In this document: piece by piece, positions 29,114 to 45,798 of the stretch | How the letters are laid out: each line of letters begins with the position of its first letter | How positions within the stretch are numbered: position 1 is the first letter of the stretch | Source of the DNA: a virus | IMG/VR virus record: IMGVR_UViG_3300035199_000659 | Coordinates: 1-64,000 of that record | Direction: 5' to 3' (one strand) | Length of the DNA: 64,000 nt | Position numbers and translations under genes: made by a program | The notes under the pieces: model-generated | The model's database searches: none | What the model was told of the DNA's origin: nothing | What the model saw: only the letters and a program-made list of their open reading frames with translations

Positions 29114-30665
29114 AATCTTCTACTCGGAACTTGAATACTTCTGACTGCTCGGACCATGATGCCAGTGCTGGATCATAGAAGGAGAATTTAAATGCGTACT
29201 GATACCCGGGTTGCAAAATAGACATATCAAAGTCAAAATAGTTTCCGGATACATCATGAGAGAGTGAGGTACACATGTCAGAGCCTGTTCCATATGGGAT
29301 TGCTTCATATGCATCTAGAATTCGAAAGACCCGATATGAGGCGCTAGCAATCGTAAGCACCTCTGGGTCGTTATTGGCAACCGTATAAATGGTCGGATCC
29401 CAGTTCTTGTTTCTAACATATAAATTGAATCTAGCGGTCTCGTTGCTTCTATAATTTTGCTTGAGATTCGTAATGTTCATAAAATATACCGGTTTTGCTA
29501 CGGTCTGGGCGGCGCTTAACACATTCGGCTTGATCGCGCCTGTAAAGTATTGTATACTGCCAGAATACCATACATCAAACAGGGGATTGACTACGGTCGT
29601 CGTGCCATCGCTCAAGGAGATCGACGTTGCAGCCAAGCACACAGAACAAGTATAGATGCCCTTGGATACCCATCCTCCGGTAGCCGGCGTGTACAAAATC
29701 TGTGACTGTGCGGAGCCTGATGGGACTGAGTTGTTTAGTGAGCCCGAGTATATGTTGACAAATATGGGATCGCCATTGTCGACGTTCGGGATATTTCTCA
29801 ATTCTCCTCGCACGTAGTTGTATAGATACAAGGTATTCATATTTTCTGCTGCAGTGGCCAAGGAGCTACTGTAGTAGAAATCTCCTCGATCATCATTTCG
29901 CACACTGTTCCAGCGCGCCTCTATAGCGGGGCGTTTGAAGTAGTATTGTGAGCCTCTTGCAAAGAATCGTTTAGTATAGTAAGATTTTGTAGCGCCTAAG
30001 CGGTTGTTCTGCACGCTCTGATCGGTGCCGACAGAGGCTGTGGCTCGAGCTTCATAGCTCGAAGATAATTTTACCCCCACACCATAGTTTGCAATGCCGC
30101 CGCCGCCGGCGCCTTTGATCCATCTTTCGACCAAGGGGGTTATATTGATCTCTAGATCTTCTAGACCGGTTTCAAATGTTTGTTCATACCGATAGTCAGC
30201 CGAACTTGACAACCAATCTCCGCCACCAGAAACCGAATTCCATCCGGCAGTGTTTGAGGCACTCATCCAATTGGCGCCCGTATTTCCCTTCGTTTCATCC
30301 TTATATGTATCCAGATCCAAGCCAACACCTTCTTGCCAATCTGTAAAGATGGGGTTCACAACCATCTTGAAATCGCGAGGTACAGTACGAGACGTTTTAG
30401 CCCCATAGAGCCTCAAGTAAAAGCTTACACTTCCACTGCCCGGGATTGTGCCGGCTGTTCTATCTGAAGAAATAGTTGCGGTGGGAAACTTCACCAAAGC
30501 ACGAGAAAGCTCCTGCGAGCCGGATGTAGCCCTTCCGTAAATCGAAAATACTTCCATGATATCCGCCATGCCCATATTGGAGCCTGTGCCACGTGTTTGT
30601 AAATTTGGTTTAAATGCGTTGACAATAGTGGTGTCTGCAGTGGCTTTATATCTCTTAATGGCCAT
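29103..30665 (-). CDS. Baseplate-associated structural protein (DNRLRE/disaggregatase-like N-terminal domain)
   Basis: ATADTTI...SRALVKF...YLRLY...WQEG...GGDW...INITPLVERW...NYG pattern; directly downstream of the gp6-like gene. Confidence 0.6.
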   Translation of the reverse strand: MAIKRYKATADTTIVNAFKPNLQTRGTGSNMGMADIMEVFSIYGRATSGSQELSRALVKFPTATISSDRTAGTIPGSGSVSFYLRLYGAKTSRTVPRDFKMVVNPIFTDWQEGVGLDLDTYKDETKGNTGANWMSASNTAGWNSVSGGGDWLSSSADYRYEQTFETGLEDLEINITPLVERWIKGAGGGGIANYGVGVKLSSSYEARATASVGTDQSVQNNRLGATKSYYTKRFFARGSQYYFKRPAIEARWNSVRNDDRGDFYYSSSLATAAENMNTLYLYNYVRGELRNIPNVDNGDPIFVNIYSGSLNNSVPSGSAQSQILYTPATGGWVSKGIYTCSVCLAATSISLSDGTTTVVNPLFDVWYSGSIQYFTGAIKPNVLSAAQTVAKPVYFMNITNLKQNYRSNETARFNLYVRNKNWDPTIYTVANNDPEVLTIASASYRVFRILDAYEAIPYGTGSDMCTSLSHDVSGNYFDFDMSILQPGYQYAFKFSFYDPALASWSEQSEVFKFRVEDYEY

Positions 30666-32461
30666 TATTTAACCTTTCCTATAATGTCGGTAGTCGGATA
30701 TTTTAATTCCACGACAGCGTTCTTCGGCACAATAACATATGTGCCGTCTGGGGACGTGTTATCATTAATATTAAAGCTAACTGCTGAGTAGTTGGCGCCG
30801 GCTTTGTTTATAATTGCCACTTGAGATACTTCTAAGACCCCAGAGACTTTGTTTAATTCGGCATAAAGCTCTACTACACTAAGGTGTTCGCCAATATAGG
30901 CATGTGTTTGAAACTTCTTGCGAAGAGCTGCATTACAGGACTCCAATAGATCATATTTGTCAACTCCGGTTTTCGGGCGCACAATGTATTGAATCCCAAA
31001 GTTGATGATATAAGCATCTAGAATATCAATTGTATCATTGATCATCCTGTGCTGATTAAGCCAAGTTTTTAAGTTCTTTTTAATGGTATTATTGCACAGG
31101 GTAAGGTGCCCGACCGCATCAATGGAAATAACATACATATTCAAGTTGCGTTTACGTTCATCAGGGTCGCGCTGGACTGAACATCTTTTTACAGCGCCGT
31201 ACTTCTCTGGCATCCGATACGAAAGATTTTCATAATCCGCCTGTGTCACAGCCCTGTTTTGAGTTGGAAAAGTATCAAAAATCTTTCTTTTAATCTCATC
31301 AGATGTTAATTCAGCAACATTGCCAACTATCGGCTCTTCATTGCTGACCTCAAGCGATTGCCTGACTTCGTCCATAAGGCCCGAATCAAGATCTTGTGGG
31401 TTGCTAAATTCAAAAATGCTGTTTCCAACTTCGTTCAAAGTGGCCACTGCGGCATTCGAGTTTGCTGGGTTCGTGATCCGATAAACCACATTCAACGTTG
31501 TGTTGGATGGCACAACACCATAGCTTTCATTTTGGCTCAATCGCGTGGGATCAAACGTGGTGTCCGTAATATAATCTTTCCCAAAAATATCCATAGCCAC
31601 CGCTCCCGGGTCAGCTATAATATTAGTTCCGGCGGCCTGACCACTTCCAAATTGAATAACGGTGTTGGAGCGGCCGCGCTCGACGACAAACTTTCTTGAC
31701 ACCAGATATGGCTTCAAAATTGATGGAACATTATCGTTCCTGAAATTCATGTTTGGCACTTCTCTAAAAATCATATCTTGTGAAAGGTAGTCTACTTCAT
31801 AGTATTCATTCCCCTCTGAGTCAGTAATAGAAATGATCTCGCTCATATTAGGGTTGGAAATACCCACCTTTTTAAATCTCTCATAAGCTCCAACTTTAAT
31901 CTGCTCGCGAGTAAAATAGCCCGATACAACGTTGCCATACGCTTTAATTGCATAGTATGTTGGGGCGCCAGTAATTGTGTTGGTTCTGGCAGCAACAATG
32001 GCGTTTTGTGGATTGGTGAAATCGACATTAGCAGTCAAAACAAAGTTTAAACCACCTGTGGTGCTAAATCGTGTTCCCCGCTTGAGAATGGGGGTGTACC
32101 TGAGATCTGGACCAATACCAGTCGCACTAGCAGGCACTAGAACATACATCGAAACTGTTCCGAAGGTCGATGGGCGGCCGCGGTTTTTATATCCCAGTGC
32201 GCGGCCGTGGCGGACAATATTATCATACTGGTATGCGGTGTCCAGAAACGCCTCATTGACATTGTAGTCTAAGTAAAAGTTTAGCTGGTCAGCCACATAT
32301 GCGACAGCATCAACCATCATGGCCCCAAACGAACCTTCGCTAAAATCTCTGAAGGAATCTGGATAAAGCCTTTCCGCTACTTGTACAAGATCACTACGGA
32401 TTGATTGGAACTCTCTATGTGTGTAGTCGATAGGGACTATCTTTTTTTGGTCATCTGACAT
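30665..32461 (-). CDS. Baseplate wedge protein, T4 gp6 / P2 J-like
   Basis: IDYTHREFQSIRSDL, NEAFLDTA, IQFGSG, QNRAVTQADYE. Confidence 0.9.
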   Translation of the reverse strand: MSDDQKKIVPIDYTHREFQSIRSDLVQVAERLYPDSFRDFSEGSFGAMMVDAVAYVADQLNFYLDYNVNEAFLDTAYQYDNIVRHGRALGYKNRGRPSTFGTVSMYVLVPASATGIGPDLRYTPILKRGTRFSTTGGLNFVLTANVDFTNPQNAIVAARTNTITGAPTYYAIKAYGNVVSGYFTREQIKVGAYERFKKVGISNPNMSEIISITDSEGNEYYEVDYLSQDMIFREVPNMNFRNDNVPSILKPYLVSRKFVVERGRSNTVIQFGSGQAAGTNIIADPGAVAMDIFGKDYITDTTFDPTRLSQNESYGVVPSNTTLNVVYRITNPANSNAAVATLNEVGNSIFEFSNPQDLDSGLMDEVRQSLEVSNEEPIVGNVAELTSDEIKRKIFDTFPTQNRAVTQADYENLSYRMPEKYGAVKRCSVQRDPDERKRNLNMYVISIDAVGHLTLCNNTIKKNLKTWLNQHRMINDTIDILDAYIINFGIQYIVRPKTGVDKYDLLESCNAALRKKFQTHAYIGEHLSVVELYAELNKVSGVLEVSQVAIINKAGANYSAVSFNINDNTSPDGTYVIVPKNAVVELKYPTTDIIGKVK

Positions 32462-32476
32462 AAAAAACCCTCATTT

Positions 32477-32486
32477 TTTAAATAGT
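32477..32486 (-). promoter_or_regulatory. Putative late promoter (ACTATTTAAA)
   Basis: Overlaps the gp25 stop, 16 nt upstream of the gp6 ATG. Confidence 0.5.
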
Positions 32487-32846
32487 TATTTCTAATAAAT
32501 CTGTCGAGCCTATTCGTGGAATCGAATACTTCACCGCAACATTCAAAATGTTAGAATCTTGATCGGCAGCACTAAACATTATATCCCCAATAGTAATATA
32601 GGGCATATACATTGTTACCTGAGCCCTGATGGCATCATCCATTTGGCTATATGTATTTCCATTAAACGCCTCAAACAAAAAAGTTTTTAATCCAACGCCG
32701 TATTCGGGTTCCATGACCCTTTCTCCCGGGATAGTCAATAGGAGCATCTTTAAATTTTGTTTCACTAAGGCCGAAAAGTCGCGGATGACTGTGAATCCGT
32801 CTGATGAGTCCCGAGTTATCGGCAGTGCTGGGGCATAACTTGACAT
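32478..32846 (-). CDS. Baseplate wedge protein, T4 gp25 / P2 W-like
   Basis: VKQNLKMLLLTIPGERVMEPEYGVGL..FLFE is the gp25/GPW signature. Confidence 0.92.
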   Translation of the reverse strand: MSSYAPALPITRDSSDGFTVIRDFSALVKQNLKMLLLTIPGERVMEPEYGVGLKTFLFEAFNGNTYSQMDDAIRAQVTMYMPYITIGDIMFSAADQDSNILNVAVKYSIPRIGSTDLLEITI

Positions 32847-32865: not shown

Positions 32866-32875
32866 TATAAATATC
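32866..32875 (-). promoter_or_regulatory. Putative late promoter (GATATTTATA)
   Basis: 20 nt upstream of the gp25 ATG, ahead of an AAGGA SD. Confidence 0.55.
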
Positions 32876-35800
32876 ACACATCTTTCTTTTCGCACAACTC
32901 ATCTTTAGCATTAAACGGGTTGCTCTTGAGTCTCTTGCGCTGCCACCATGGTATAAGCTGTCTGCCCGGGGCAGGTCGAAGGGCATCAAGAAGCTTCTTA
33001 AAGGCGATAGCGGCTGGTCCTCCCTCGGTTGATTTACCAATCTGGTCAGGATCAAAGTCCCGGGAATAATAATAAGCTTTAAAGATCTTTTTAATTCGCG
33101 AATTAGAGTTGGTGAGTAATTCTCGATCCCAATTGTCCCACTCCATGACACCTATGCCGCCTAAGAAATTGGGCGTACGATCTTTCTTGGAAGCCCACGC
33201 GCCGTCGGTATTACTGTCTCCAAGCGGGTTGTCCACTTCATCGGAGAACAGGGAGACACTCGTAACTTTGCCGTCTTCTTCTTTAGTCTCTTTCCACATG
33301 CCCGGCTTTGTGGAAGAGTCATAATCTAGGTTTCCTTTGAACGATGTTTCACCATTGGCTACAGTGACCTCACCAATAGAGGGCAGCATCCCCATATCGT
33401 TGTATATCGCCGCAACTGATAACAAGTGCGCGGAACCAAAGATGTATCGTGTAAGTAACTGGAACTCATCGCTTTCTTTCATTGTGTTGATGAGACACAA
33501 GAGGTTCTTGCTGTTTCCTGTTAGGGTTCGGAAGTCTCTAACCTTAAGATCTAGCGCGTCGATTTCTGTTTTAATCATGGTGTAGGCGGATCCGTCGATA
33601 TCTAATCGTAGTCGCAAGCCGTAGCGGACCCCCAACTTGCCCTCGATCCCAACAGCTTCACCGTCATCGTTCTCCACTACGCTCATGGTACCGGGGTAAA
33701 TCTCTGACAACAGAGTATCGGGATCGTTCGCAGCAATTAATTCGGCGGCGATGTCCGGTGCATATTTGGAGCCATCAACGGAGATGTATTTTTCAAGGAT
33801 TAAAGGTTGCGCTGTGCTCCCCATGGCCACTGTGGTGCCATAGTCGCCAACGGTTCCGATCGGCACTGTAATCATGTTAGCTAGCGGCTTCAGAACGTCG
33901 TGTGCTTCTTCGGAGTGATATTCACCGGCCATATAAACTTTGGCGTAATCTTCGTCAATATGCACATGATAGTAGCCGATATATTCTTGACCAACTTGAT
34001 ATCCAGAATCGTCATTGTCTTCTTCAACAACAAGTTCACCACCATAAGTATAGTATGGTTCAGACGCGTCTTCATTGTCTTCATAAGGCACTTCAGGTAG
34101 ACCTCCGTAAGTAGCCTTAAACGTGCCATCGGGATTTATTGCCGAGTTAAGAGTAAGTTCGCTGCCGCGGACCATATTCTCTAAAATATAGTAGCCCATA
34201 TCAACAACGTCGGGTGCCAAATTTAGCCTAGCGAAATTCTCTTCAAGCTTCGTGGACATAAAATCAAGCTGCTGTTTCACCAATTCTTTCATAACAAGTT
34301 TGGCGTCTTCCTCTGTAGCTCGAATGGCTTCCAAGTTTTTATCCGTACGATAGCTTTCTAAAGTCTGAAACGTGCCGGCGTCGTCGGTCGCCTTGGCCAC
34401 TTTCAAATCTTCTTTGTTGGGATAGAGGAAATCCTCTTGCAAATCATTGAGCCTAAAGAGGGCTTCAAGAACATCCGGCGATGGGTTTACGAGGCCTGCA
34501 TCAATTTGCATGTTATACATTTGGACACACGTCTCTAAAAACGCATACCAAAACTCAGTATCTTTGAACGTGTTAAACACTTCCCAGAAGGCCGGCTGGG
34601 CGTCCAAGAAGCCCGCTTCCATGTTCTCTACAATGTAAGATGCATATGCGGATCCAAACAGATCTGGGAATTTGGGAGAGAACTTAGTAAACGTCGGCAG
34701 CGTTTTAATCATGTGAACACTCACGTGAATGCGAATTGCTGCTATAACCAAGCCGTACAGGCCTGCTTTTGCCGAGCGATCTAATATCCTATTATATGGC
34801 ACTTCTAAAATGCAATCGGGATCGCTTTTAAGGCGCTCATCTTCAGACAGAGAGGGATATATTCTGCTCATCTCATCTTGAATCTGCCCAAAGTCAATCA
34901 TGTCAGTAGTCTGAGGTTTACAAGGGCTGAGTTCTGGGAAAAAAGCATCCACAACGCCCATCCAGCCAATTGGTTTTATGGGCTTAATATAAATCGGAGG
35001 GTTCATATAGTTGCCACCAAATTTTGCAGGATCGAGGTAATATACGCGTGTAAGTTCTGGGGTGCCGGCTTGCTCCATCTCATATTGATTCCTACTCATT
35101 CCCAGTACCATGTCTGTATTGGAATAATCTGTGTCGCTGTAAAGGGTGAATCCGCCCTCCTTCACGCCATATTCGATGTCTTCTTCTGTTAAGCCATCAA
35201 TTTGGGCTCCGTAGGACCAAGCCGTTTCGTTTGTTGCCACATCTGGATCTGCAATAGTGTACATAATGTTGGCTAAGAAATCCTTCATAACGTCGGATCT
35301 TAACGACTTAACTGTCGAATTGGGGATATCGTGGCCATTGTTTTCTAGCATCTCGGCTAACAAAATTGTTTGGGGCGTGAAATTAGTTTTTGACTGAAAC
35401 GAAGCCAAGAAGCTTGGGTAGTTCTCTAAAGTTTGTGCAATCGTGTCGCTAATTCCTGTTAGGGTGTCATCAACAGCTAAGAACTCAAAGACTGTTGATT
35501 TAATAACGGCGTCTTCTCCAATATCTTGTGTCACTTCTTCATTGTCGTAGCCGGCGGCGGTCTCGGGTGGGTCGCCGCCTAGGCTGCCAAAACTGAGGCC
35601 CTCATTTGGATCTCCGACTGCGCCGGCATCAAGTGACATATTGGTTCGGGCGCCCATATTGTATCGATCTACAATCTTGATTCTCATGTTATCGCTTTTT
35701 CTGTTAGTTATTTGGCCTTCTTCGTTCTCATATAAGTCCGAGAAATAAGCCTTGATGTCAAATCCATAACCATATACTGATTGATTGCCGTTGGGCCCAG

Positions 35801-38800
35801 AAGCCATCCCGGCAGCATTATCGCTGAAAGATACTGATATATCTGCATCGGCTTTTCGGCCTTCGGCAGTAAATGCAATCCCCGACATGTCGCCGTCGCT
35901 GTCAACCATTGCTTTCATTGTTATGTCGTAGCCCATATCCGGCAAGTTAACCAAATCTAGGTTATTGCCGAACAAGCTGTCCATATCTAAATCTGCTAAT
36001 GATTTAGTCCAAGAAGAAGCCTCTTTCCACTCGTTATTAGGATCGACAGAGATTGAACCTGCGACATCGGTCATGACATCTTGTAGCCATGCGCCCACCT
36101 TTGTGGGAAATGCACCCTTTTGGAATAAGACTGTCCACGGCAACAGGGCTAAAGCGACCGGTGCAGCAAATATAGCAATAGGGGCATATTCTTCAAGCTT
36201 GGGGTTCCAACCGCCATTATAATCGGTATACATGGGATTGAATGAAGCTTTACGCATATGTGCGGTTAGAGGGTTACCCATCGTATCTGAAAGCATCATG
36301 TTGACTAATCCCCAGTTGCCTTGGCCGGGGCCGTTGCCCAACATATCAGTGCCGTAATCGACCTTTAACTGCTCTAAAACATTCCCAAGGCCAGCGGTAA
36401 CTGTGGCAGTCGTAACTGCGGGTTCATATGGAAGAAGGCCATTGTCGCATCCCGGATCGGAATAAGTTGGGGGCATTTGTTCGCCGAGGTATTGTTCAAG
36501 GGCTTCTGGAGATGAGATAGCCTGAAGGACTGTACTAAGGTCCCCTAAGTCATCCAGCATCTGCTCTTTCACGCTACTGTGCATCTTCTCACACTGCGCT
36601 GGGGAAGCGCGGCCTTCGAGGTAGGCGCACTGAAGCTCTTGGAATTCTGCCAGTTTGGCTGGGTCTGCACAGATTGAAGGATGTGCCGGCATATCATCAG
36701 GCATTGATTCTAATTGGTCTCGTAATGAAGCCCTAAAAGACGCCGGAAACAAGACACCCATATTACTCATAAAGCTGCCAATTGCCTCTTTGTTTGGAAG
36801 CGCTTCGCGAAAGGCTGGTGAGGTCTCATATTCTATATAACTATCAATGATTGTGAGTGTGTCACTAGTGGCTTCACCGAGCAGAGCTTGTGTAAGCTCA
36901 GCATTGGTAAGGGACATTGATATTCCTTGGGCGAATTGGAGTGAGGCCTCTCTGTCGGCGAGGGCGGCGCCGCCCACTCCAAGCTGTGCAACCATTTCTG
37001 CGATCGTGTCATCAACCTGATCTTGGTCTGCGTCTGGGCCACAAATTGAGTCTTTGATAACGTTGCTCAAGTTGTCGCGGCCAGACAACAAGTCCGGTAA
37101 CGAGGCGGCGATATCGCCAACAGTACCCAGTGCATTACAAATCGCATTTCCGAGCAATTCACACAGTTTTACTATGAGACGAACCAAAATCTTAATAATC
37201 ACCATCTGAATGGCATACATAAGTGCTTGGTATAGCATCCAAAGCAAGTCTTTAATCTTTGGGTACCACGCGCTAATATTGACCAGCTTGGGCCAGTTAA
37301 TCTCGTTAACATTCTTGCATATTGGAAGCTCAATGTCATTCATCCAGTCCATAAGGCCGGGCTGGAAAAGAGGAGGGCGGGGGCAATCCATAAGTGCGAT
37401 GATGGTCGCGATCAGCTGGGCGCCCGGGAAGCGGTTTAGCTCATCGGCGAGTGATAATAGGTCATTACCATAAACTTCCAGAACTGCTTTAATATAGGCT
37501 TCTAAAATTGCTGAATCCCAGCCGGGGCCCAGAGCGCCATCAGCATTAACGCTCAAGGTTCCAGTTCCAGTGCCAGAGTCATAATTGACTGCCAGTGTTC
37601 TACGACCGTCTGCGACTGGGGCTCCCACATTGGTGGATGCATCAGGCTTGTTTTTATCAGCCTCTTTTTGGGCCATTCGGCTAGTCCAATCGGCTAAGGA
37701 GGGTAGTTGTATATCGCCGGCGATGCCATCAGATAAGTTTTGGGCAAGAGAGCCTTCCGGGAATACATCCCCGTCTTGAATCTTCTTCTTCGCCAATTCT
37801 CCAATTTCTTGTTGCTTTTCATATGGAAGCCCAACGAACAAGTCGCCCAAGTTGTTAATAGACATAGCTCTAAGGCCAGATTCAAGCACTTTCGCCAGAA
37901 CCTCCTCAAGACTGAGTCCCGAAAACAAACATGTGATAGCTTCCATTAAAATATCGAAAAGGCCGCAGATTTTAATATCATTAAACCCATTCTTCCACAA
38001 CATATCCAACTGCTTCTCTGCAGAAAGAGGGCCAGCGGCGCCGGCAACTCCAGATGCCACGGGGCCGGGTGGCAGCATCGATGATGCAACATGGGCGCAC
38101 AAGGAGACAAACGGGCTTTCAGATGCGTTTAATTCTTTGAAGGCTTGCTCAGTGGCAAATGCGGAGATGTTCTTTTCGTTTTCGCGTTGAGGTGTGAGCG
38201 GATTGTCTGACATTGACCGGTCGACCACAACACCAAGCCTAACATCTTCATCTAATTTCTCACCTAAAGAAGCCTTGCATATTTGTTCGTGAAATTTAAA
38301 CGCAATAGCATCGCCAATACTAAACACGTCGTCTAAGATATCTTCGCCCAATTGTTTGGCTTCCTCTTGAAGGGCCTCTTGAACACACCCAAGCGCATCT
38401 TGCTCAAGACTTTCTTCATCCTGTGTTGCGTATATCTCAGGATGGGTATATTCTGTTAAAAATTCGATCCATGGTTGCGGAGTTCTGGCTGTAAGGGCGG
38501 CCTCCATCTCTCTAAGTTTGGTGAAATATGCCATGGCTGTTCGGTCTTTCCAAGCCGATTTTGAAAGCAGCTCTTTGGCTTTGCTGTTGAATGTTTGCTT
38601 ATCCTCTCCGCAGCCTTCCGTATAAAACTCAATCTTTTTGATTTTATATTTATAATCAAAGGTGAATGTAATCTCTGTGACGGCATTGTTGCCATTAAAA
38701 ACTTCTGAAAAGTATCCACCTACGTTAGGGATATTGTAGCCATATTTATTAAGGACACCATCAAGCTCTGGTAATATTTTAGACATGACTGCTTTATCGC

Positions 38801-39491
38801 CGCCCCATCCGATGTCTCCATAATTCTCTAAATTGAAAATCTTGTTCCCATCGGAGAATTTTAAGTTTCCTTTCTCGATGGCACGATAGACTTTTAGATA
38901 TCTGTTGTATAGATTCAGGCCCTTTCGCACCTTCAACATCATAGGATCTATTTCATGGGCGGAAAAGCTGACGACGATATCACTTGTATCTTCCTCTTCG
39001 TCGTCCTCATCTGAATCTCGGGCGGGCAACTCTTCCAAAGCGTCGTACGGAACAGAATACAATAATTTTAGGCGTGTTTTGTGTCTGGCCTTGAGCCAGT
39101 AATCAGTATACTCTATGACCTCTCTTATCACCTCAACACTCGCAGCGCTGTTGTCTTTATCGTGAGTCTCTAGAAGTGTCTCGATAGCTTCGTCTTCATA
39201 CTCCTTAAATATTTCATCAAGAGCAGCCTGTTCCTCATCTTCTGTGGCGCCGGGGAAGGTACCCGTGGTCATATGTTTTGCGGCAGTGATTGTAATCTGA
39301 TACTTACAATTCTTTTCGTTCAAGAACGATTCAAACTTGTCCTTTTCTCGCCAGTTGGGCACCAAAGCATTAGAATTGGGTTCACACCCCGGGCAATATT
39401 TTGGCTCTGTGGCAGCAAATTTTTCTGGGCAGTCATCATTTTGACCGTCGCCGTTAGCGTCCTGAAATGGCAGGAACTTTGATTCTGACAT
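32874..39491 (-). CDS. Very large acidic virion protein (2205 aa) between spike and wedge genes
   Basis: Long ORF, largely helical by composition, with two hydrophobic segments; function not assignable. Confidence 0.7.
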   Translation of the reverse strand: MSESKFLPFQDANGDGQNDDCPEKFAATEPKYCPGCEPNSNALVPNWREKDKFESFLNEKNCKYQITITAAKHMTTGTFPGATEDEEQAALDEIFKEYEDEAIETLLETHDKDNSAASVEVIREVIEYTDYWLKARHKTRLKLLYSVPYDALEELPARDSDEDDEEEDTSDIVVSFSAHEIDPMMLKVRKGLNLYNRYLKVYRAIEKGNLKFSDGNKIFNLENYGDIGWGGDKAVMSKILPELDGVLNKYGYNIPNVGGYFSEVFNGNNAVTEITFTFDYKYKIKKIEFYTEGCGEDKQTFNSKAKELLSKSAWKDRTAMAYFTKLREMEAALTARTPQPWIEFLTEYTHPEIYATQDEESLEQDALGCVQEALQEEAKQLGEDILDDVFSIGDAIAFKFHEQICKASLGEKLDEDVRLGVVVDRSMSDNPLTPQRENEKNISAFATEQAFKELNASESPFVSLCAHVASSMLPPGPVASGVAGAAGPLSAEKQLDMLWKNGFNDIKICGLFDILMEAITCLFSGLSLEEVLAKVLESGLRAMSINNLGDLFVGLPYEKQQEIGELAKKKIQDGDVFPEGSLAQNLSDGIAGDIQLPSLADWTSRMAQKEADKNKPDASTNVGAPVADGRRTLAVNYDSGTGTGTLSVNADGALGPGWDSAILEAYIKAVLEVYGNDLLSLADELNRFPGAQLIATIIALMDCPRPPLFQPGLMDWMNDIELPICKNVNEINWPKLVNISAWYPKIKDLLWMLYQALMYAIQMVIIKILVRLIVKLCELLGNAICNALGTVGDIAASLPDLLSGRDNLSNVIKDSICGPDADQDQVDDTIAEMVAQLGVGGAALADREASLQFAQGISMSLTNAELTQALLGEATSDTLTIIDSYIEYETSPAFREALPNKEAIGSFMSNMGVLFPASFRASLRDQLESMPDDMPAHPSICADPAKLAEFQELQCAYLEGRASPAQCEKMHSSVKEQMLDDLGDLSTVLQAISSPEALEQYLGEQMPPTYSDPGCDNGLLPYEPAVTTATVTAGLGNVLEQLKVDYGTDMLGNGPGQGNWGLVNMMLSDTMGNPLTAHMRKASFNPMYTDYNGGWNPKLEEYAPIAIFAAPVALALLPWTVLFQKGAFPTKVGAWLQDVMTDVAGSISVDPNNEWKEASSWTKSLADLDMDSLFGNNLDLVNLPDMGYDITMKAMVDSDGDMSGIAFTAEGRKADADISVSFSDNAAGMASGPNGNQSVYGYGFDIKAYFSDLYENEEGQITNRKSDNMRIKIVDRYNMGARTNMSLDAGAVGDPNEGLSFGSLGGDPPETAAGYDNEEVTQDIGEDAVIKSTVFEFLAVDDTLTGISDTIAQTLENYPSFLASFQSKTNFTPQTILLAEMLENNGHDIPNSTVKSLRSDVMKDFLANIMYTIADPDVATNETAWSYGAQIDGLTEEDIEYGVKEGGFTLYSDTDYSNTDMVLGMSRNQYEMEQAGTPELTRVYYLDPAKFGGNYMNPPIYIKPIKPIGWMGVVDAFFPELSPCKPQTTDMIDFGQIQDEMSRIYPSLSEDERLKSDPDCILEVPYNRILDRSAKAGLYGLVIAAIRIHVSVHMIKTLPTFTKFSPKFPDLFGSAYASYIVENMEAGFLDAQPAFWEVFNTFKDTEFWYAFLETCVQMYNMQIDAGLVNPSPDVLEALFRLNDLQEDFLYPNKEDLKVAKATDDAGTFQTLESYRTDKNLEAIRATEEDAKLVMKELVKQQLDFMSTKLEENFARLNLAPDVVDMGYYILENMVRGSELTLNSAINPDGTFKATYGGLPEVPYEDNEDASEPYYTYGGELVVEEDNDDSGYQVGQEYIGYYHVHIDEDYAKVYMAGEYHSEEAHDVLKPLANMITVPIGTVGDYGTTVAMGSTAQPLILEKYISVDGSKYAPDIAAELIAANDPDTLLSEIYPGTMSVVENDDGEAVGIEGKLGVRYGLRLRLDIDGSAYTMIKTEIDALDLKVRDFRTLTGNSKNLLCLINTMKESDEFQLLTRYIFGSAHLLSVAAIYNDMGMLPSIGEVTVANGETSFKGNLDYDSSTKPGMWKETKEEDGKVTSVSLFSDEVDNPLGDSNTDGAWASKKDRTPNFLGGIGVMEWDNWDRELLTNSNSRIKKIFKAYYYSRDFDPDQIGKSTEGGPAAIAFKKLLDALRPAPGRQLIPWWQRKRLKSNPFNAKDELCEKKDV

Positions 39492-39503: not shown

Positions 39504-39513
39504 ATTAATTAGT
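39504..39513 (-). promoter_or_regulatory. Putative late promoter (ACTAATTAAT)
   Basis: Overlaps the upstream stop, 13 nt before the ATG at 39491. Confidence 0.5.
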
Positions 39514-40452
39514 TAATACATTTCTACTTACAATATACTTTTTCTCAGGAGATTGTAAGTAGTTAAAATTCCAAAACTGAAGAGTCGTTCTAGTCTGGTA
39601 GAGGGATGCAAGGACGCCGGTAAACTTTTGTTGCATAGATACTGGCATAGCAGATGCATGCCACGGGATCGGTGTAACCCCGAGTACCCCTTCTAAGCCG
39701 GCTTGGGTGATCCCCAAATTGAAGCATGCGCTCCAAATCTCTCCAATTATCTCGGTTAACTCTCTTAAACACTCTACAGTGTTCTCTCCGCGGGCTACGC
39801 CTTGAACATTACTCATATCGTTGCCGGCAACCAATTGGATGGGTGCGGAATTGCTAATCTTGCCACCTAATGAGTTTGTTTCTCCTGAAAGGCCAAACTT
39901 GGCGTTGCGCATCTTGCCGGTGACGATCTTTACACCTTCTCTCCCGACAATTCTAACTCCATCTGCTTTAATCCCAACGCCCGACCTTGCGATGGCGCCG
40001 CGGCCCATGTTTTGGCTCCATATGCCGGAATCAAGTCCGAGGGCAAGATCAATATCACACAAGCGGCTAATATAGATTCTTGCAGCATCCGTAGCGAAGT
40101 TGTTATCTATGGCAGACTTGGCTTTTGGGCCTTTTCCTCTGTGAGAAGATGAGTGTCTTCCAACTACCAAGTCGATAGAGTCTGCGGGTATGCCGCGGGC
40201 GCCATAGTTTCCCGCGATGCCGGCGGCTGGAACTTGCCCGAATACAATATAAGCGCCCTGATTAGACAGAACAGATGCACCTCTGGGCTTGTTATAGGTA
40301 AACGGGACACGACAAACCGGGGTGTTGAACAAGCCCGAATTTGGCGGGGCTGCTCTCACATCGACGCCGCGGTCTATCATCTCTTGTACGGTTTCGCACT
40401 CGGTATCCTTATTCCCCTTAAGGAAATCTCCAAATTTAATCTTCCTTGCCAT
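39505..40452 (-). CDS. Putative baseplate central spike/hub protein (gp5 C-terminal-like beta region)
   Basis: Short beta-strand repeats (SIDLVVGR, ARIYIS, VGIKADGVRIVGREGVKIVTG) and position upstream of gp25/gp6. Confidence 0.5.
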   Translation of the reverse strand: MARKIKFGDFLKGNKDTECETVQEMIDRGVDVRAAPPNSGLFNTPVCRVPFTYNKPRGASVLSNQGAYIVFGQVPAAGIAGNYGARGIPADSIDLVVGRHSSSHRGKGPKAKSAIDNNFATDAARIYISRLCDIDLALGLDSGIWSQNMGRGAIARSGVGIKADGVRIVGREGVKIVTGKMRNAKFGLSGETNSLGGKISNSAPIQLVAGNDMSNVQGVARGENTVECLRELTEIIGEIWSACFNLGITQAGLEGVLGVTPIPWHASAMPVSMQQKFTGVLASLYQTRTTLQFWNFNYLQSPEKKYIVSRNVLTN

Positions 40453-40475
40453 ATTAATATCCTATCTTATATGTC

Positions 40476-41786
40476 TTAACTTGTGTAGCCCCAATCTACA
40501 CCCTCGACGCCATATGTGGGATCGGTCTCGGGCGGATCGCCGGCGGCTACCCAACTATCTCGATTCTCTGTGTCCCATGGACGCTCTGCTGAAACGACAG
40601 CGTTGCTGGTGCCGGTTAAATCTGACCACAACAATAGTGTGTATGTAACTCGCGTTTGACCGGTGGACTTCCAGATACCCCACGCTTTTTCAAAGTCAGA
40701 ATTTTTCTGGAAAACTTGGCAGCCGGCGGACCAAGTACTGACTTGCTGGCTGTTTTTGCCTGATCTGTGAATATTGATGCCGAAGCGCTTACCGGTATCC
40801 TCTCCTCCACCGGATGATTCCCAATCTAAAACTGCATCAGCGTTGTTGTCACGATAAACTGTCACTTCACCAACTTGCTGCAGGCCGGGCTTTCCCGAAT
40901 GCTTGCCAAAAATATACGCATCCACATATTGGCCCTCTTTAAGCTGGGCGGCTCCTTTTGCATTAAGATACTCTTTAGCAGCAGTTCGATTAATAATCGA
41001 CAATCCGGGATCGGTCGTAATTTGAAAGCCTATATCGTTCCACATGCCGTCCTTAAACCATATAAGATGCATAACATCATCAAAGGAGTCTGGCACTCTA
41101 TTCGATGAGCGAACCCCGATAGAGTTAATCGTCCCATCTTCATATACTTTATATCCCTTGTTTCGCAATATGGTGATCAGCTTAGGCTCTTCAGCCGTTT
41201 GTGCAAGCTTGTCTGATGCAGTTAGGGGGAGGCCGGCCACGTTGCCTATAAAGCCGGGGGCTCCGCCTCCTCCAAAAAGGTTGCCCAATTTGGCGCAGGC
41301 GCCGGCTTTACTAATTTGCTGGTTCTGGAAAATATCTTTTACGCCGGTCATATCGCAAAACTGTAAGTCGTAAAGGTTTGTTAGGCCTCCGGCAAGCATC
41401 TCGCTCTCAATAATATCGCCGGGCTGGAACTGGGGCATTTCGCCCGCTTTACTAAATCGCACTTTTGTATGCAGCGCATATAATCTAGAGCCAGCGCCGG
41501 CATCGGGCGATACTGATTCGTTACACGGGTCTTCTAAGAATTTTTGATGTGGCATGCCGGGGTTAAGTATTCTTCCTGTAAATAAATATTTAGAGTCTAT
41601 GTTGGTTTGGTTTAGCAATTCGGGATCTTGATTGGCGGTGGCTGGGCCTGAGTATGGCGCAGGGCTTGACATTACTTTGAACCTAAACGAATTGTCGTTT
41701 TGGAAAACACTAGAGTCTTTCTCGTCAACTTCTTCATTTTGCGTAGCAATTAACGTTTGCAATGCTTCTCTGTTTGTCAATGACAT
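40476..41786 (-). CDS. Shared N-domain + L,D-transpeptidase (YkuD)-like C-domain
   Basis: GINIHRSG...WSAGCQVF matches the H-x(n)-S-x-G-C catalytic motif; the N-domain is shared with the two upstream genes. Confidence 0.75.
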   Translation of the reverse strand: MSLTNREALQTLIATQNEEVDEKDSSVFQNDNSFRFKVMSSPAPYSGPATANQDPELLNQTNIDSKYLFTGRILNPGMPHQKFLEDPCNESVSPDAGAGSRLYALHTKVRFSKAGEMPQFQPGDIIESEMLAGGLTNLYDLQFCDMTGVKDIFQNQQISKAGACAKLGNLFGGGGAPGFIGNVAGLPLTASDKLAQTAEEPKLITILRNKGYKVYEDGTINSIGVRSSNRVPDSFDDVMHLIWFKDGMWNDIGFQITTDPGLSIINRTAAKEYLNAKGAAQLKEGQYVDAYIFGKHSGKPGLQQVGEVTVYRDNNADAVLDWESSGGGEDTGKRFGINIHRSGKNSQQVSTWSAGCQVFQKNSDFEKAWGIWKSTGQTRVTYTLLLWSDLTGTSNAVVSAERPWDTENRDSWVAAGDPPETDPTYGVEGVDWGYTS

Positions 41787-41801
41787 ACGTTTTCTCCACC
41801 T

Positions 41802-41811
41802 TATAATTATA
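41802..41811 (-). promoter_or_regulatory. Putative late promoter (TATAATTATA)
   Basis: Intergenic, 16 nt upstream of the ATG at 41786, ahead of a GGAG SD. Confidence 0.5.
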
Positions 41812-41835
41812 TCAATAGCAAAATTTTACCAGCAG

Positions 41836-43080
41836 TTATGTTGTCTCTGTTTCTGGCTCTGTGGCGCCATCTCCAGCTTCTGGTGGCGGATCTTGCGGAG
41901 TAGACGCGGCAGCAGCAGCGACTGCTTCCGCGTGGGCTGCGGCGCCTTTACGAAGAAGTGAACTGATGCGTGTAGATTCCCAGTGCCATACCTCAATGTT
42001 TGAGCCGCACTTCTTTTTAGGTGGGGCGACACAAGGACGACCAAGCTCAGCGCTAACGCTGGGCTTTTGGGCCCAGTATGGATGCTCCCAATTATATGTG
42101 GATGCATTATCAAAAAGCCATTTATAAGCTTCCCCGCTAAAAGAAAGGGACTTCTTTTTACCATTTCCATCATAATAGTGGGTATCAACAGCAGCGCCCC
42201 AGCCGTGATTTGAATAGCCGGGCTTCGAAGCTTTTCCGCAAGATCCTTTGGCGCACCATGATGCCCTAAGCTTAACTTGTGTTTGATAAGTTCTATCGCC
42301 ACTACCGGCCAACTTCCACCCTTTATCGGAAAAATGAGCAGCAAAGGCTGCTGCCATTGAATCCCATTCTGGCGCTATGTCTGTCAAGACGCGGGGGTGA
42401 CCTGTCAAATATCCTTGGGTTGCGGCAGTAATGAGGCCAGCATCAGACAATTTTCCATTAGTAACGGGAGTGTTGTTCCCTCCTCCAATATAGACAGCCT
42501 TTTGGCCCGGGCCATTGCCGGCTGCGGCGCCGACTGTGGTAGCACCCATCATGGAGCCTATTTCACCAAAGTTTGCTGCTATTTTACCGTTAGCGACAGT
42601 TTTAACATCCGCACAAGTGATATCGGTACCAGCTTTACTTGGTTCTGTAAATATCTCAATCACTCTTTCGAAATCAACAGCTTGAAGATCATATTGAGCT
42701 ACATCGCTGGCCGCGGCGTCACAAGATATTTCTACGATATCGCCCGCCGTGAAGGCTGGCATTGCGCCGGCCTTAGAAACAGTCACGATTGAGTGAAGGC
42801 AGGTTAGGCCAGTTGATTTATCAGAGGTACTGCTATCGCATACGTTTTCCAAAAAAACTTCATGTGGCATTTTCTTATCTAAGATTCGGCCCATGAACTG
42901 CCACTTTGAATCTATGCCAGCTTTATTAAGGGTCTCTGGATCATCAGTAGTGGTGGCAGGGCCTGAAATCGCAATTGGTTTGTCGATCACCTGAACTTTG
43001 AATGAATTCTCATTTTGTTTGTTGTCTTGTGCATTGGAAAATTTTGCCCATGCCTCAAAATTGGAACGGTTGGTGGACAT
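41836..43080 (-). CDS. Shared N-domain + M15 (VanY-like) Zn peptidase C-domain
   Basis: SGDRTYQTQ, PGYSNHGWGAAVD (SxHxxGxAxD) and EVWHWE (ExWH). ATG at 43080 preferred over the TTG at 43092. Confidence 0.85.
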   Translation of the reverse strand: MSTNRSNFEAWAKFSNAQDNKQNENSFKVQVIDKPIAISGPATTTDDPETLNKAGIDSKWQFMGRILDKKMPHEVFLENVCDSSTSDKSTGLTCLHSIVTVSKAGAMPAFTAGDIVEISCDAAASDVAQYDLQAVDFERVIEIFTEPSKAGTDITCADVKTVANGKIAANFGEIGSMMGATTVGAAAGNGPGQKAVYIGGGNNTPVTNGKLSDAGLITAATQGYLTGHPRVLTDIAPEWDSMAAAFAAHFSDKGWKLAGSGDRTYQTQVKLRASWCAKGSCGKASKPGYSNHGWGAAVDTHYYDGNGKKKSLSFSGEAYKWLFDNASTYNWEHPYWAQKPSVSAELGRPCVAPPKKKCGSNIEVWHWESTRISSLLRKGAAAHAEAVAAAAASTPQDPPPEAGDGATEPETETT

Positions 43081-43088
43081 ATTCTGTC

Positions 43089-44471
43089 TCAAACTCCTTC
43101 CGTGGCGCTAGGTGTGGTGCCGGTTGCTGAACCAGTGGCAGCTGTCGCGACGGCTGGGGTTGATGATACTACGTTCTTGCATGGCCAAGTAGAATTGATA
43201 ACGTTTGCTCGTCGCTGCCAGTGCTTCTTCATTGCAGGGAACTTGCGCGATGCTTGGGTCTCCTTGGGCATGCTGATGCCCTTCACATATCCAAGCAATG
43301 TTTTTTCTGCATCCCAGCCGGCCATTCCAGCTAGCTTTGTGAAACCCTCAACGCCCAAACTGTTGCTAATTCCGGCGGCGATTGCAAATTGTCGGCCGGT
43401 TACCCAGCCGTGAGCCTTGGCTTTTTCAGATCCGGGGCCGGCCTTGGAACTCATCCACGTTGCTGTTTGGATACGCTTGGACTCTGGGCTTGCTGTGAAT
43501 TTCTGCATTCCGCTTTTCCACCAGCCGGTTGAATAACAGCCGGTGCCATTATCATTTTCGCCCATTGGCGTCGTACCTTTACAGTTATTTTTCTGCTTTG
43601 TGAAGCTTCTTAACTGCGACACACTTCTGCCAAAATACTTCTGAGACACAGTATCACCCATGGCTTTATATAGTGAGTGAAGTCCTGAGTCTGCCCAATG
43701 GGCGATGCCTATGGAGCCGCCATCAATAGCGATAACATCAGTATACTTTTTAGATTTTCCTTTCTTTGAAATAACATGATAGAGTGTGGTCTCAGCCCAA
43801 TCCGCAGGTGCGGGTTCTGTGTCGCCGCAAGATTGGGCGGAAGTGAGCATTGGGGCGCCCCCGCCGCCGGCGGTGCCACCAAAAGCTGAGCCGATCGCAT
43901 GGGCGCCTGCTGGGATCATGCGACCCAAGGAGCCAAAATTTGTACTCGCGAACATCTTTGATATGTTTTCGCATGTTTCAGATACACTTTTCTTATCCTC
44001 AAACGAGTCTTTAATTCTCACAAAATCTGCATTTTGTAGATCATACATCGTTCCGTTATCTCCAGCGCGGAACTTGCAAATAATAACGTCTCCCGCCTTA
44101 AAAGACGGCAGGGCGCCGGCTTTTGTTAACGTTATTTTGGTATGCAGGCACACAACACCGTTATTGGCGCCGGGTGATGGGGCTGTACTTTCGTCGCACG
44201 GGTCTTCGCACAGTTGGTTGTGCGTCATTTTTAGCTCCGTAATACGACCCATAAATACATATTTGGAATCTATGCCGCTATTTTGCAGATCTTCTGGGTC
44301 ATCGGCAGCAGTTGCGGGGCCTGAGTATGCTACTGGATCTGACAAAAGCTTGACGGCAAATTTCTTCTTTTTCTTAAAAATGTTTTTGCCACTTTTCATA
44401 TGAAAAGAGCCTTCTGCATACTCTTTGGGTCCGTATAGATCTTTGCCTCTTAGGGCTGTTTTACTGCCCAT
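43089..44471 (-). CDS. Shared N-domain + lysozyme-like (possibly degenerate) C-domain
   Basis: YTDV..IDGGSIGIAHW..SGLHSL...W...F...PE..RIQ resembles lysozyme-superfamily hairpin motifs; no obvious catalytic Glu. Confidence 0.55.
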   Translation of the reverse strand: MGSKTALRGKDLYGPKEYAEGSFHMKSGKNIFKKKKKFAVKLLSDPVAYSGPATAADDPEDLQNSGIDSKYVFMGRITELKMTHNQLCEDPCDESTAPSPGANNGVVCLHTKITLTKAGALPSFKAGDVIICKFRAGDNGTMYDLQNADFVRIKDSFEDKKSVSETCENISKMFASTNFGSLGRMIPAGAHAIGSAFGGTAGGGGAPMLTSAQSCGDTEPAPADWAETTLYHVISKKGKSKKYTDVIAIDGGSIGIAHWADSGLHSLYKAMGDTVSQKYFGRSVSQLRSFTKQKNNCKGTTPMGENDNGTGCYSTGWWKSGMQKFTASPESKRIQTATWMSSKAGPGSEKAKAHGWVTGRQFAIAAGISNSLGVEGFTKLAGMAGWDAEKTLLGYVKGISMPKETQASRKFPAMKKHWQRRANVINSTWPCKNVVSSTPAVATAATGSATGTTPSATEGV

Positions 44472-44763
44472 CGTCCGCTGTTCCCTGAATCATATCAAAT
44501 ATGCTGTCTTTGTCGCCATCTGATAGTTCCGACGTCTCAACACGGCGCTTCTGGCGCAGGCCGATGAGCTTTACAAGCTGTTCGTTCGACCGTTGCATTG
44601 TTTCAATATGCTTGGCAGCTACGGGACTAAGGTACTTATTTTGTTCAGAATCAGCTGCTATCTGGTTCGCAATCTCGTTTAAAAATTCACGAGCCAATTT
44701 CCTATCATCTCGGATATTATCCAAGGCTTCGGTCATCAAATTATCCATTTCTTTTGTTTTCAT
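44461..44763 (-). CDS. Hypothetical helical protein (100 aa; terminase small subunit is one possibility)
   Basis: ATGA overlap with the sigma stop; coiled-coil-like. The functional guess is weak. Confidence 0.6.
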   Translation of the reverse strand: MKTKEMDNLMTEALDNIRDDRKLAREFLNEIANQIAADSEQNKYLSPVAAKHIETMQRSNEQLVKLIGLRQKRRVETSELSDGDKDSIFDMIQGTADDGQ

Positions 44764-45470
44764 AGCGAGCCGTTTTCCCAATCCTGCCTAAAATTAGAAT
44801 ATTTCTTGCGAAATTTCTTAAGAGAGTTAACAATCTGTTTGGTATTGAGATCAGTAATCTCGCGCAGGTATAAATAAATAGCTTTTTTGTTGAAAATTTC
44901 TATATCTTCTTTGGACTCAAACAAGATCATGATCGCTTTATATACTTTAAGATCGTTATCTTTCATTTGTGATTCGTCCCACGAACGAATCTCTTGATAA
45001 AACGAATCCCAAAATTCTTGTTCCACTCTATTGGAGAGATAAGACTCGGTAGTTGCTAAATATTCTTCTTCATATTTCTTAGAAATGTTTCCCAAATCTA
45101 CTTCGCGTCGATTGCGTTTCTGCTGTTGTTTTACTTTATGAATAAACCAATTTTTAGTTATGACTGAGAAATATGAAAAGGCTTTCGAGCCCTTGTTTGG
45201 ATCATACTTGTCCAAGATGGTAACGAGCCAAATTTTACACTCATCCCTAAGCGAATCGCAGTTTGGAAGTGTCGTAAATTTATAAGTAAAAACAATTTTA
45301 TCCACCATTTGATCAAAGGCCGGCTGAATATAATCAACATATAGCTGTGTTCTCGTTTTTATACATCTAATGCGTGCATATTGAACGATAGCGTCTTCGT
45401 GCACTTGTGTAAAATAATAGTTTTTGGTCTTGCTTCTACGCCTGCGGCGCTTGATCTTCTTCTGCGTCAT
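44760..45470 (-). CDS. Phage sigma factor, T4 gp55 (late sigma)-like
   Basis: KNYYFT; region-2-like LRDEC...LDKYDPNKGSKAFSYFSVITKNWFIHKVK; C-terminal HTH-like YLYLREITDLNTKQI. Confidence 0.8.
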   Translation of the reverse strand: MTQKKIKRRRRRSKTKNYYFTQVHEDAIVQYARIRCIKTRTQLYVDYIQPAFDQMVDKIVFTYKFTTLPNCDSLRDECKIWLVTILDKYDPNKGSKAFSYFSVITKNWFIHKVKQQQKRNRREVDLGNISKKYEEEYLATTESYLSNRVEQEFWDSFYQEIRSWDESQMKDNDLKVYKAIMILFESKEDIEIFNKKAIYLYLREITDLNTKQIVNSLKKFRKKYSNFRQDWENGSL

Positions 45471-45798
45471 CAAATAATTCCTTCTGTTCTTCTTCAGACA
45501 TTTCTATAGGTTCTTCCTCTGTGAGCGAGTAAACATATTCAAACGTCTCTAACTGCTCATTGAGAGAAACTGCGTGATTTAAGAGATGCTCTAATGTGGT
45601 GTCACCATAAAACATTTCTAATTCATAAACTGATTTTGTGTGTTTTGCAAAAGCATCCACCATTGTTTGCAGGTCTCCCAGTTCCCCAGAAACCATTAAC
45701 AGACGCCGGATTGCTGCTCGGGCATATACAAAAATCCCGACATTAAAGATGACTGAAAAAAATAGTACTGCGGACAATATTACTTCAAGTTTACTCAT
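45436..45798 (-). CDS. Hypothetical protein with N-terminal transmembrane helix
   Basis: VILSAVLFFSVIFNVGIFVYA followed by an acidic tail. Confidence 0.7.
   Translation of the reverse strand: MSKLEVILSAVLFFSVIFNVGIFVYARAAIRRLLMVSGELGDLQTMVDAFAKHTKSVYELEMFYGDTTLEHLLNHAVSLNEQLETFEYVYSLTEEEPIEMSEEEQKELFDDAEEDQAPQA

Follow-up and report, generated by a model that had tools for sequence, protein, structure and literature searches.

N-domain lysins, putative baseplate-associated peptidoglycan hydrolases with exchangeable enzyme domains in uncultured marine phages

Why would a phage encode, side by side and next to its baseplate genes, three proteins that share one N-terminal domain and carry three different C-terminal domains? 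This question is raised by the window analyzed here, a stretch of 64,000 nucleotides that forms the first 64 kb of the 96-kb IMG/VR record IMGVR_UViG_3300035199_000659, a record estimated to be 52% complete. The three tandem genes, referred to as paralogs A, B, and C, lie on the minus strand, which carries every gene of the window. The initial annotation had read them as a split version of T4 gp5, in which a shared, possibly OB-like adaptor loads three enzymes onto a threefold hub next to a spike-like protein, either as a heterotrimer or as alternative tips. On balance, the answer that we favor is that A, B, and C are entry peptidoglycan hydrolases associated with the baseplate core, similar to T4 gp5* but free-standing, devoid of a β-helix, and equipped with polymorphic warheads.

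The three genes and their shared domains are arranged as follows.
43089..44471, minus strand: paralog A, 460 residues, N-domain, Gly-rich linker, A-type C-domain, and tail
43977-44366, minus strand: N-domain of A, residues 36-165
41836..43080, minus strand: paralog B, 414 residues, N-domain, linker, and VanY/M15 (LAS) zinc peptidase domain
42622-43008, minus strand: N-domain of B, residues 25-153
40476..41786, minus strand: paralog C, 436 residues, N-domain, linker, and C-type domain with a YkuD-like signature
41307-41693, minus strand: N-domain of C, residues 32-160

All three open reading frames were recovered where they had been placed originally; for B, the start may be ATG 43080 or TTG 43092. 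The common N-domain of approximately 130 residues is 43-44% identical in each pair, and 40 of the 130 alignment columns are invariant. Each paralog's N-domain matches the orthologues of the other two with phmmer E-values of 1e-28 to 1e-41, which is far beyond chance. The Gly-rich linker is likewise present in all three (GGGG at A202-205, GGG at B199-201, and GGGG at C172-175). In A, the linker spans residues ~166-215 and is followed by the C-domain at ~216-437, termed A-type, and an Ala/Thr/Pro-rich tail; orthologues of A share 73-90% identity. The C-domains of A, B, and C are mutually unrelated by alignment, BLAST clustering, and hhalign, and the sequences of the N-termini contain no signal or transmembrane segment. 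Collectively, the original observation of a common N-domain joined to differing C-domains is confirmed, while its interpretation is partly supported. Low-complexity tails rich in Ala, Thr, Pro, and Glu were also seen at the C-termini of A, B, and C (nucleotides ~43089-43220, 41836-42000, and 40476-40650, respectively), with A terminating in ...TEGV and C including ...GVEGVDWGYTS.

The enzyme domains of the three proteins were assigned with different degrees of success. For B, the proposed M15 zinc peptidase was verified, as the domain at ~206-370 matches Pfam PF02557 (VanY) at 2.8e-7 (30.8 bits against a cut-off of 25) and contains both of the LAS zinc motifs tested, SxHxxGxAxD as SNHGWGAAVD at 290-299 (nucleotides 42184-42213) and ExxH (ExWH) as EVWH at 363-366. 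Further matches were obtained to NCBIfam LdcB (1.2e-4) and to the LdcB structure 4ox5 in the PDB (2e-3). For C, the YkuD-like assignment is retained by motif only. With the catalytic signature taken as H-x(14-17)-[S/T]-x-G-C, the C-type domain (~200-395) contains H340-x12-SxGC356, read as H340...SAGC356 and invariant in six diverse members, and it matches phrog_3000 (1e-25) and phrog_33083, labeled 'endolysin' (6e-9). No Pfam match was found even at E<=10, and a PDB profile search with C-type domains returned nanobodies only, which were judged to be chance matches. Based on the motif and its spacing, the C-type domain may be a YkuD-like Cys/His enzyme. The third label found no support: the C-domain of A, described as lysozyme-like, matches nothing in Pfam, PHROG, NCBIfam, or PDB profile searches and has no hhalign link to the Phage_lysozyme2 or GH24 classes of its own family. 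Recognized peptidoglycan hydrolase domains are found in B (VanY) and in those family members that carry VanY, M23, Amidase_2, GH24, or Phage_lysozyme2.

Beyond these three proteins, the family exchanges its enzyme part very often, a result that is strongly borne out by the comparison of homologs. The Pfam classes found on the N-domain are VanY (19 members), M23 (10), Amidase_2 (6), Phage_lysozyme2 (3, also listed as Phage_lysozyme2/SLT), DUF2272 (3), GH24 (2), and M15_4 (2), and many further members have no Pfam enzyme domain. Clustering of the C-domains yielded 28 classes at the BLAST level and approximately 23 after profile merging, more than 10 of which have no family. The exchange is most evident in pairs of close relatives.
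L019 and L020: VanY versus Amidase_2, with 96.8% identity over residues 1-187
L099 and L083: M23 versus an unassigned class, with 84.5% identity over residues 1-200
B and its closest N-domain relative P0009: VanY versus DUF2272-like, with 78% identity over residues 1-191 and no similarity thereafter
In every case, the breakpoint of the swap is located just 3' of the Gly-rich linker. The idea of interchangeable warheads on one anchor is thus upheld by the number of classes and by swaps between anchors that are 78-97% identical.

An exhaustive profile search with the N-domain returned 98 cluster representatives at E<=1e-3, and in almost all of them the domain occupies residues ~30-160 of a protein of 350-470 residues. 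These proteins originate from marine metagenomes, including Tara viral-size fractions. A scan of viral contigs with an alignment of only three N-domain sequences gave no confirmed locus. Viral loci were instead collected from 322 viral contigs carrying a relative of p315, the gene directly downstream of C, and 80 of them were compared together with 18 metagenome loci. The gene order was constant in 98 of 98 loci: p237, p106, one to three N-domain genes, p315, p2205, gp25, and gp6. In the window, the genes that flank the paralogs are tightly packed or overlapping.
44760..45473, minus strand: p237, which opens the conserved module and is weakly gp55-like (late sigma; phrog_234, 7.4e-4)
44461..44781, minus strand: p106, small, acidic, and helical; wherever upstream sequence is available, it directly precedes the first N-domain gene
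39505..40452, minus strand: p315, 315 residues, conserved, a candidate spike or needle component
32874..39491, minus strand: p2205, a giant conserved protein between p315 and gp25
32478..32846, minus strand: gp25-like baseplate wedge protein (Pfam GPW_gp25, 2.1e-14, 53.5 bits against a cut-off of 27.2; phrog_261, 3e-18)
30665..32461, minus strand: gp6-like baseplate wedge protein (phrog_219, 1.6e-20)

Because p315, p2205, and the gp25-like and gp6-like genes lie downstream of A, B, and C, the paralogs belong to a contractile-tail baseplate module. The 3' end of p106 overlaps the start of A by 11 nucleotides. The closest cultured phages, as judged by gp6 (~30% identity), are Microcystis phage Mel-JY01 and the Flavobacterium 'immuto' phages; the gp6-like protein is 28-31% identical over its full length to their baseplate wedge proteins. 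In both, the arrangement from p237 to gp25-gp6 is kept, with p237 homologues occupying the corresponding place in immuto (1e-29) and Mel-JY01 (2e-21), as in all related loci. Neither the N-domain nor p315 was found in these phages. Furthermore, tblastn of A against deposited phages gave no match, and the family member P0012 matched them through its amidase domain only; by these searches, the family appears to have no cultured member. In Mel-JY01, a possible cultured-phage counterpart of the N-domain lysins is the 343-residue protein WWT39505 (L005 13948-14979). Encoded two genes upstream of gp25, it carries a GH19-type lysin domain (residues 147-336) and is not matched by the N-domain hidden Markov model (HMM). 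As a separate observation, p237 and p106 may correspond to the T4 late-transcription factors gp55 and gp33.

Three copies as the basic design of the system were considered and rejected. A single copy was counted in 60 of the 80 viral loci, two copies in three, and three copies in three; the other 14 comprise nine loci that are cut upstream and five with one divergent member that retains the H...PxPC and GD motifs. At least one N-domain gene is present in 71 of the 71 viral loci with intact upstream sequence (66 detected by HMM and five divergent). Since a single copy is the rule and the slot is filled in all informative loci, the gene is universal in the module, and carrying three copies reflects lineage-specific expansion. 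In a quick maximum-likelihood tree of the N-domain, which contains several long branches, the A, B, and C clades group together with a single-copy relative (SH-aLRT 85), whereas the triplet of L069, L071, and L084 falls within its own clade (97) and the pair of L013 and L016 within another (97). The triplet and the pair are in separate clades, and therefore the duplications are independent. One copy is probably the ancestral state. In multi-copy loci, the copies always carry different enzyme classes. Thus, across the homologs, both features vary, the C-domain over the classes described above and the copy number from one to three.

To which fold does the conserved N-domain belong? No family match was obtained in Pfam, PHROG, or NCBIfam, and the PDB profile search was empty. 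A search of the whole record with PF06714 (Gp5_OB) gave nothing at A, B, or C, and the same search of Mel-JY01 and immuto was empty. PF04717, PF05488 (PAAR), and PF05954 (Phage_GPD) were not found in the record, and A, B, and C have no Gp5_C or Phage_base_V match, with the polypeptides ending shortly after the enzyme domain. The AlphaFold2 model, built from a 68-row alignment, is a barrel with inserted helices, with a predicted local distance difference test (pLDDT) score of 71 overall and 75-87 in the core. Foldseek matches of this model are weak and are all OB folds. VIA ranks a baseplate chain of phage P1 first (Z 6.2, root-mean-square deviation 3.1 Å, 78 residues aligned), and approximately 13 of the VIA top 50 are putative baseplate or central-spike chains, from Mu, A-1(L), Pa193, PhiTE, Bas63, E217, the phiKZ spike, VgrG1, AFP, PVC, and eCIS, with spike OB domains at Z 4.5-5.3. 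In the Atlas feature search, Gp5_OB clusters were reached at 0.92 and 0.90, and the best BFVD matches are uncultured marine virus proteins of the same layout. Collectively, these models indicate that the N-domain likely has an OB-type fold, while a closer relationship to spike OB domains in particular is plausible rather than established. The proposed OB-like, gp5-type adaptor is therefore sustained in its fold, through the predicted barrel and its exclusively OB-fold neighbors, and not in its descent, as no sequence or profile link to gp5 was obtained. The BFVD entries A0A1B1IUR3, A0A1B1IUR4, and A0A1B1IUT8 (456, 472, and 440 residues), whose accessions are near-consecutive, may represent another three-copy genome in UniProt.

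The N-domain also retains a set of polar residues. R76, H84, C92, H110, D128, Y143, and Q146 (numbered as in paralog A, nucleotides ~44034-44246) have equivalents in B and C, and each is conserved in 81-97% of the 204 members compared. Judging from the sequence, the H/C/H/D set looks like a putative metal site. The idea that the N-domain is itself an enzyme, suggested by the kept H, C, H, and D, gained no support from any family or fold.

Whether the N-domain proteins serve at entry or in lysis can be approached through relatives with more complete genomes. Three of them (G001-G003, of 203 kb with terminal repeats, 191 kb, and 187 kb) are rated 100% complete; a further record was examined alongside. 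Each of these four relatives encodes, far from the N-domain slot, a protein of ~300 residues with PG_binding_1-like and Amidase_2 domains.
L106, 1698-2675: PG_binding_1-like + Amidase_2 gene
L107, 1782-2672: PG_binding_1-like + Amidase_2 gene
L108, 1990-2913, minus strand: PG_binding_1-like + Amidase_2 gene
L109, 1858-2781: PG_binding_1-like + Amidase_2 gene
This protein is 65-87% identical among the four, has no N-domain, and is never swapped, while the slot genes of the same four relatives carry VanY, M23, Amidase_2, and a divergent VanY. In one genome, the slot gene and the separate endolysin candidate are both Amidase_2 proteins, a situation comparable to that of gp5 and gp e in T4 (PMC3004832). 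Based on its domains and conservation, the PG_binding_1-like + Amidase_2 protein is likely the true endolysin of the phage group, and the pattern fits an endolysin passed on vertically and an entry enzyme that evolves apart from it. This argues against A, B, and C being non-virion endolysins, the outcome under which the original interpretation would fail. Moreover, A, B, and C are flanked by late-regulator-like and baseplate genes rather than by a lysis cassette. Small transmembrane-like open reading frames were noted near the PG_binding_1-like + Amidase_2 gene in L107 and L109.

The two conserved genes downstream of the paralogs were examined as possible partners. For p315, 353 homologues were collected, and its relatives always lie directly downstream of the N-domain gene or genes. 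Its AlphaFold2 model (pLDDT 80.6) shows a β-rich N-terminal half, a Gly-rich stretch at ~160-220, and a long helical hairpin at 222-299; the Gly-rich stretch is conserved and poorly structured in the monomer model. As first described, p315 has no enzyme domain, since no enzyme family was matched. Its spike-like character fared less clearly: the β-rich half and Atlas leads fit, the nearest Pfam-labeled Atlas clusters all being spike-related (DUF2345, Gp5_C, and Gp5_trimer_C, at only 0.82-0.84), while Foldseek returned nothing, VIA matched only the generic helical hairpin, and there was neither a PDB profile match nor an hhalign link to gp5 or to the N-domain. A 1:1 complex prediction of p315 and the N-domain scored 0.00, which gives no answer and counts neither for nor against binding. 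A role for p315 in the spike or needle is thus a weak lead. For p2205, which has 2,100-2,400 residues in relatives and a conserved position in every locus, no Pfam, PHROG, or NCBIfam match was found. It contains two to three hydrophobic segments (windows ~508, 752-783, and 1103-1125) and is a candidate tape-measure, hub, or ejection protein.

Based on the observed architecture, family distribution, synteny, swaps, independent duplications, and separate endolysin of the relatives, a mechanism can be proposed in which A, B, and C act as baseplate-core-associated entry enzymes. The N-domain, a predicted OB-type barrel, would dock the protein to the hub or spike region as its structural anchor, and the flexible Gly-rich linker would tether the catalytic warhead, which would digest the wall locally once the sheath has contracted. 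The linker would double as a recombination joint, so that the warhead could be freely exchanged between phages. In this lineage, the gene would have been triplicated and each copy would then have acquired a different enzyme class, namely an unassigned class in A, an M15/VanY stem-peptide peptidase in B, and a Cys/His YkuD-like enzyme in C; the three classes might widen the set of bonds cut by one virion population. In favor of this mechanism, the slot is at the head of a baseplate module whose gp25 exceeds the Pfam cut-off, and it is universal among informative loci. Where the proteins sit in the virion, the service of the N-domain as an anchor, and the stage at which they act are inferred.

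Several results weigh against this proposal. The N-domain profile aligned to a 120-sequence gp5 OB profile with an hhalign probability of 0.05%, and the folds of IF1/eIF1A, S1, and SSB tie with the baseplate chains at Z 4.5-6; as Z 5-6 is the range of common arrangements, the structural match may be a generic OB match. The conserved polar residues may just as well belong to a site that binds a ligand, a metal, or a sugar as to a protein interface. T4 gp5 stays in the spike through its own β-helix, a feature that A, B, and C lack. The record yielded no gp27-like hub, and the separate endolysin gene was not found in the 52% of the genome that this record is estimated to cover. The presence of A, B, and C in the virion is itself argued from gene context.

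Some of these points suit a different role within the particle, in which the N-domain is a targeting or packaging module elsewhere, either in the tube lumen with p2205 or as part of an ejected cargo, and the proteins are released into the periplasm. The generic OB match, tied with IF1/eIF1A, the missing profile link to gp5, and the lack of a β-helix for retention in the spike are all compatible with such packaging, as is p2205, two genes downstream, with hydrophobic segments like those of tape-measure or ejection proteins. However, the best OB matches are enriched in spike and baseplate chains, the slot directly before p315 is fixed, and known capsid- or tube-targeting peptides are smaller than a folded, strongly conserved domain of 130 residues. 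We consider this role unlikely. It is very unlikely that A, B, and C are cytoplasmic modular endolysins, with the OB barrel binding wall oligosaccharides and the three copies forming a multi-bond lysis cocktail late in infection. Against such a role stand the vertically conserved PG_binding_1-like + Amidase_2 protein of complete relatives, which fits the endolysin role, the fixed slot between the late regulators and p315/p2205/gp25/gp6 in 98 loci, the lack of a holin-like neighbor, and the two Amidase_2 lysis enzymes that one genome would then carry. Nevertheless, the PHROG label of the domain of C is 'endolysin', every assignable C-domain class is also used by endolysins, and modular shuffling is typical of these enzymes. 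OB folds can also bind sugars, the N-domain keeps polar and aromatic residues, and the GH19 'endolysin'-type protein of Mel-JY01, with 145 unassigned N-terminal residues, lies near the same slot. Finally, within the preferred reading of A, B, and C as baseplate-associated entry enzymes, the three-copy phages could assemble A, B, and C as an obligate heterotrimer through diverged OB anchors around the threefold axis of the baseplate. This is quite unlikely; if true, every virion tip would carry three different bond specificities, the recurrent independent triplications would reflect selection to fill exactly three symmetry-related sites, and phage tails would have their first example of an enzymatic tip that is both heterotrimeric and polymorphic.

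In T4, the OB domain of gp5 is the adaptor to gp27, and gp e and gp5 are separate proteins, as the relatives studied here have an endolysin and a slot enzyme (PMC3004832 for T4). Like T4 gp5*, the processed N-terminal part of gp5 with an OB fold and a lysozyme, the N-domain proteins combine a predicted OB-type barrel of ~130 residues, a long linker, and a peptidoglycan hydrolase; they are also encoded with baseplate genes, with a separate endolysin in the same phage group. In contrast to gp5, A, B, and C show no detectable sequence or profile similarity to it and have no C-terminal triple-stranded β-helix. Their enzymes are not GH24, the single gene of T4 is replaced by one to three paralogs, and the turnover of the enzyme module is very high. 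A second comparison is offered by the baseplate core of Staphylococcus phage 812/K, in which the hub 'cleaver' has a CHAP domain and the spike combines an OB domain, a β-prism, a coiled coil, and a GDPD 'petal' (PMC13433997). Both systems would place several chemically different wall-degrading activities in one myophage baseplate core, and the OB, β-prism, and coiled-coil order of the 812 spike resembles the predicted layout of p315 (β-rich, Gly-rich, helical hairpin). However, in phage 812 the enzymatic domains are built into the hub and spike polypeptides, whereas here they are separate paralogs with one common anchor, and the hosts and wall types differ.

Exchange of the effector on a constant structural part is also known from the type VI secretion system. 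Its evolved VgrG and PAAR proteins have a conserved N-terminal structural part and interchangeable C-terminal effectors, many of which are peptidoglycan hydrolases, with contractile delivery, and one genome may hold several VgrG/PAAR paralogues with different effectors. Unlike VgrG, the locus studied here has no gp27-like or Phage_GPD domain, no β-helix, no PAAR, and no immunity genes, and it is a phage structural module rather than a secretion system. With modular Gram-negative endolysins of the KZ144 type, the paralogs share the order of an N-terminal non-catalytic domain and a C-terminal muralytic domain. In contrast to that type, the N-domain is a predicted β-barrel and not a helical PG_binding_1 domain, the genes are inside a baseplate operon, and the phage group already has its PG_binding_1-like + Amidase_2 protein elsewhere.

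As part of the preferred reading, we propose with moderate confidence that the N-domain lysins are a new, widespread, and previously unnamed family. If this holds, a large clade of uncultured marine myophages mounts its entry lysins on the N-domain anchor and replaces the catalytic part as readily as toxin domains are replaced in polymorphic effector systems. The anchor would then be a natural plug-and-play scaffold for tail lysins with a joint defined at the Gly-rich linker, accompanied by a catalogue of ~23 wall-degrading domain classes, more than 10 without a family assignment. Moreover, the tail-tip enzyme repertoire, rather than the receptor-binding protein, would appear to be under diversifying selection, and loci with one, two, or three paralogues would be a clean system for studying how paralogues share the symmetry sites of a baseplate.

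Two further open reading frames of the window were noted outside this module. Downstream of the wedge genes, positions 18578-29113 hold a frame of 3511 residues with no PHROG match, which is presumably a giant baseplate or fiber protein. At positions 649-3756, a single frame of 1035 residues matches SbcD-like (residues 1-376) and SbcC-like (304-1034) PHROGs and looks like a fused Mre11-Rad50-type nuclease.

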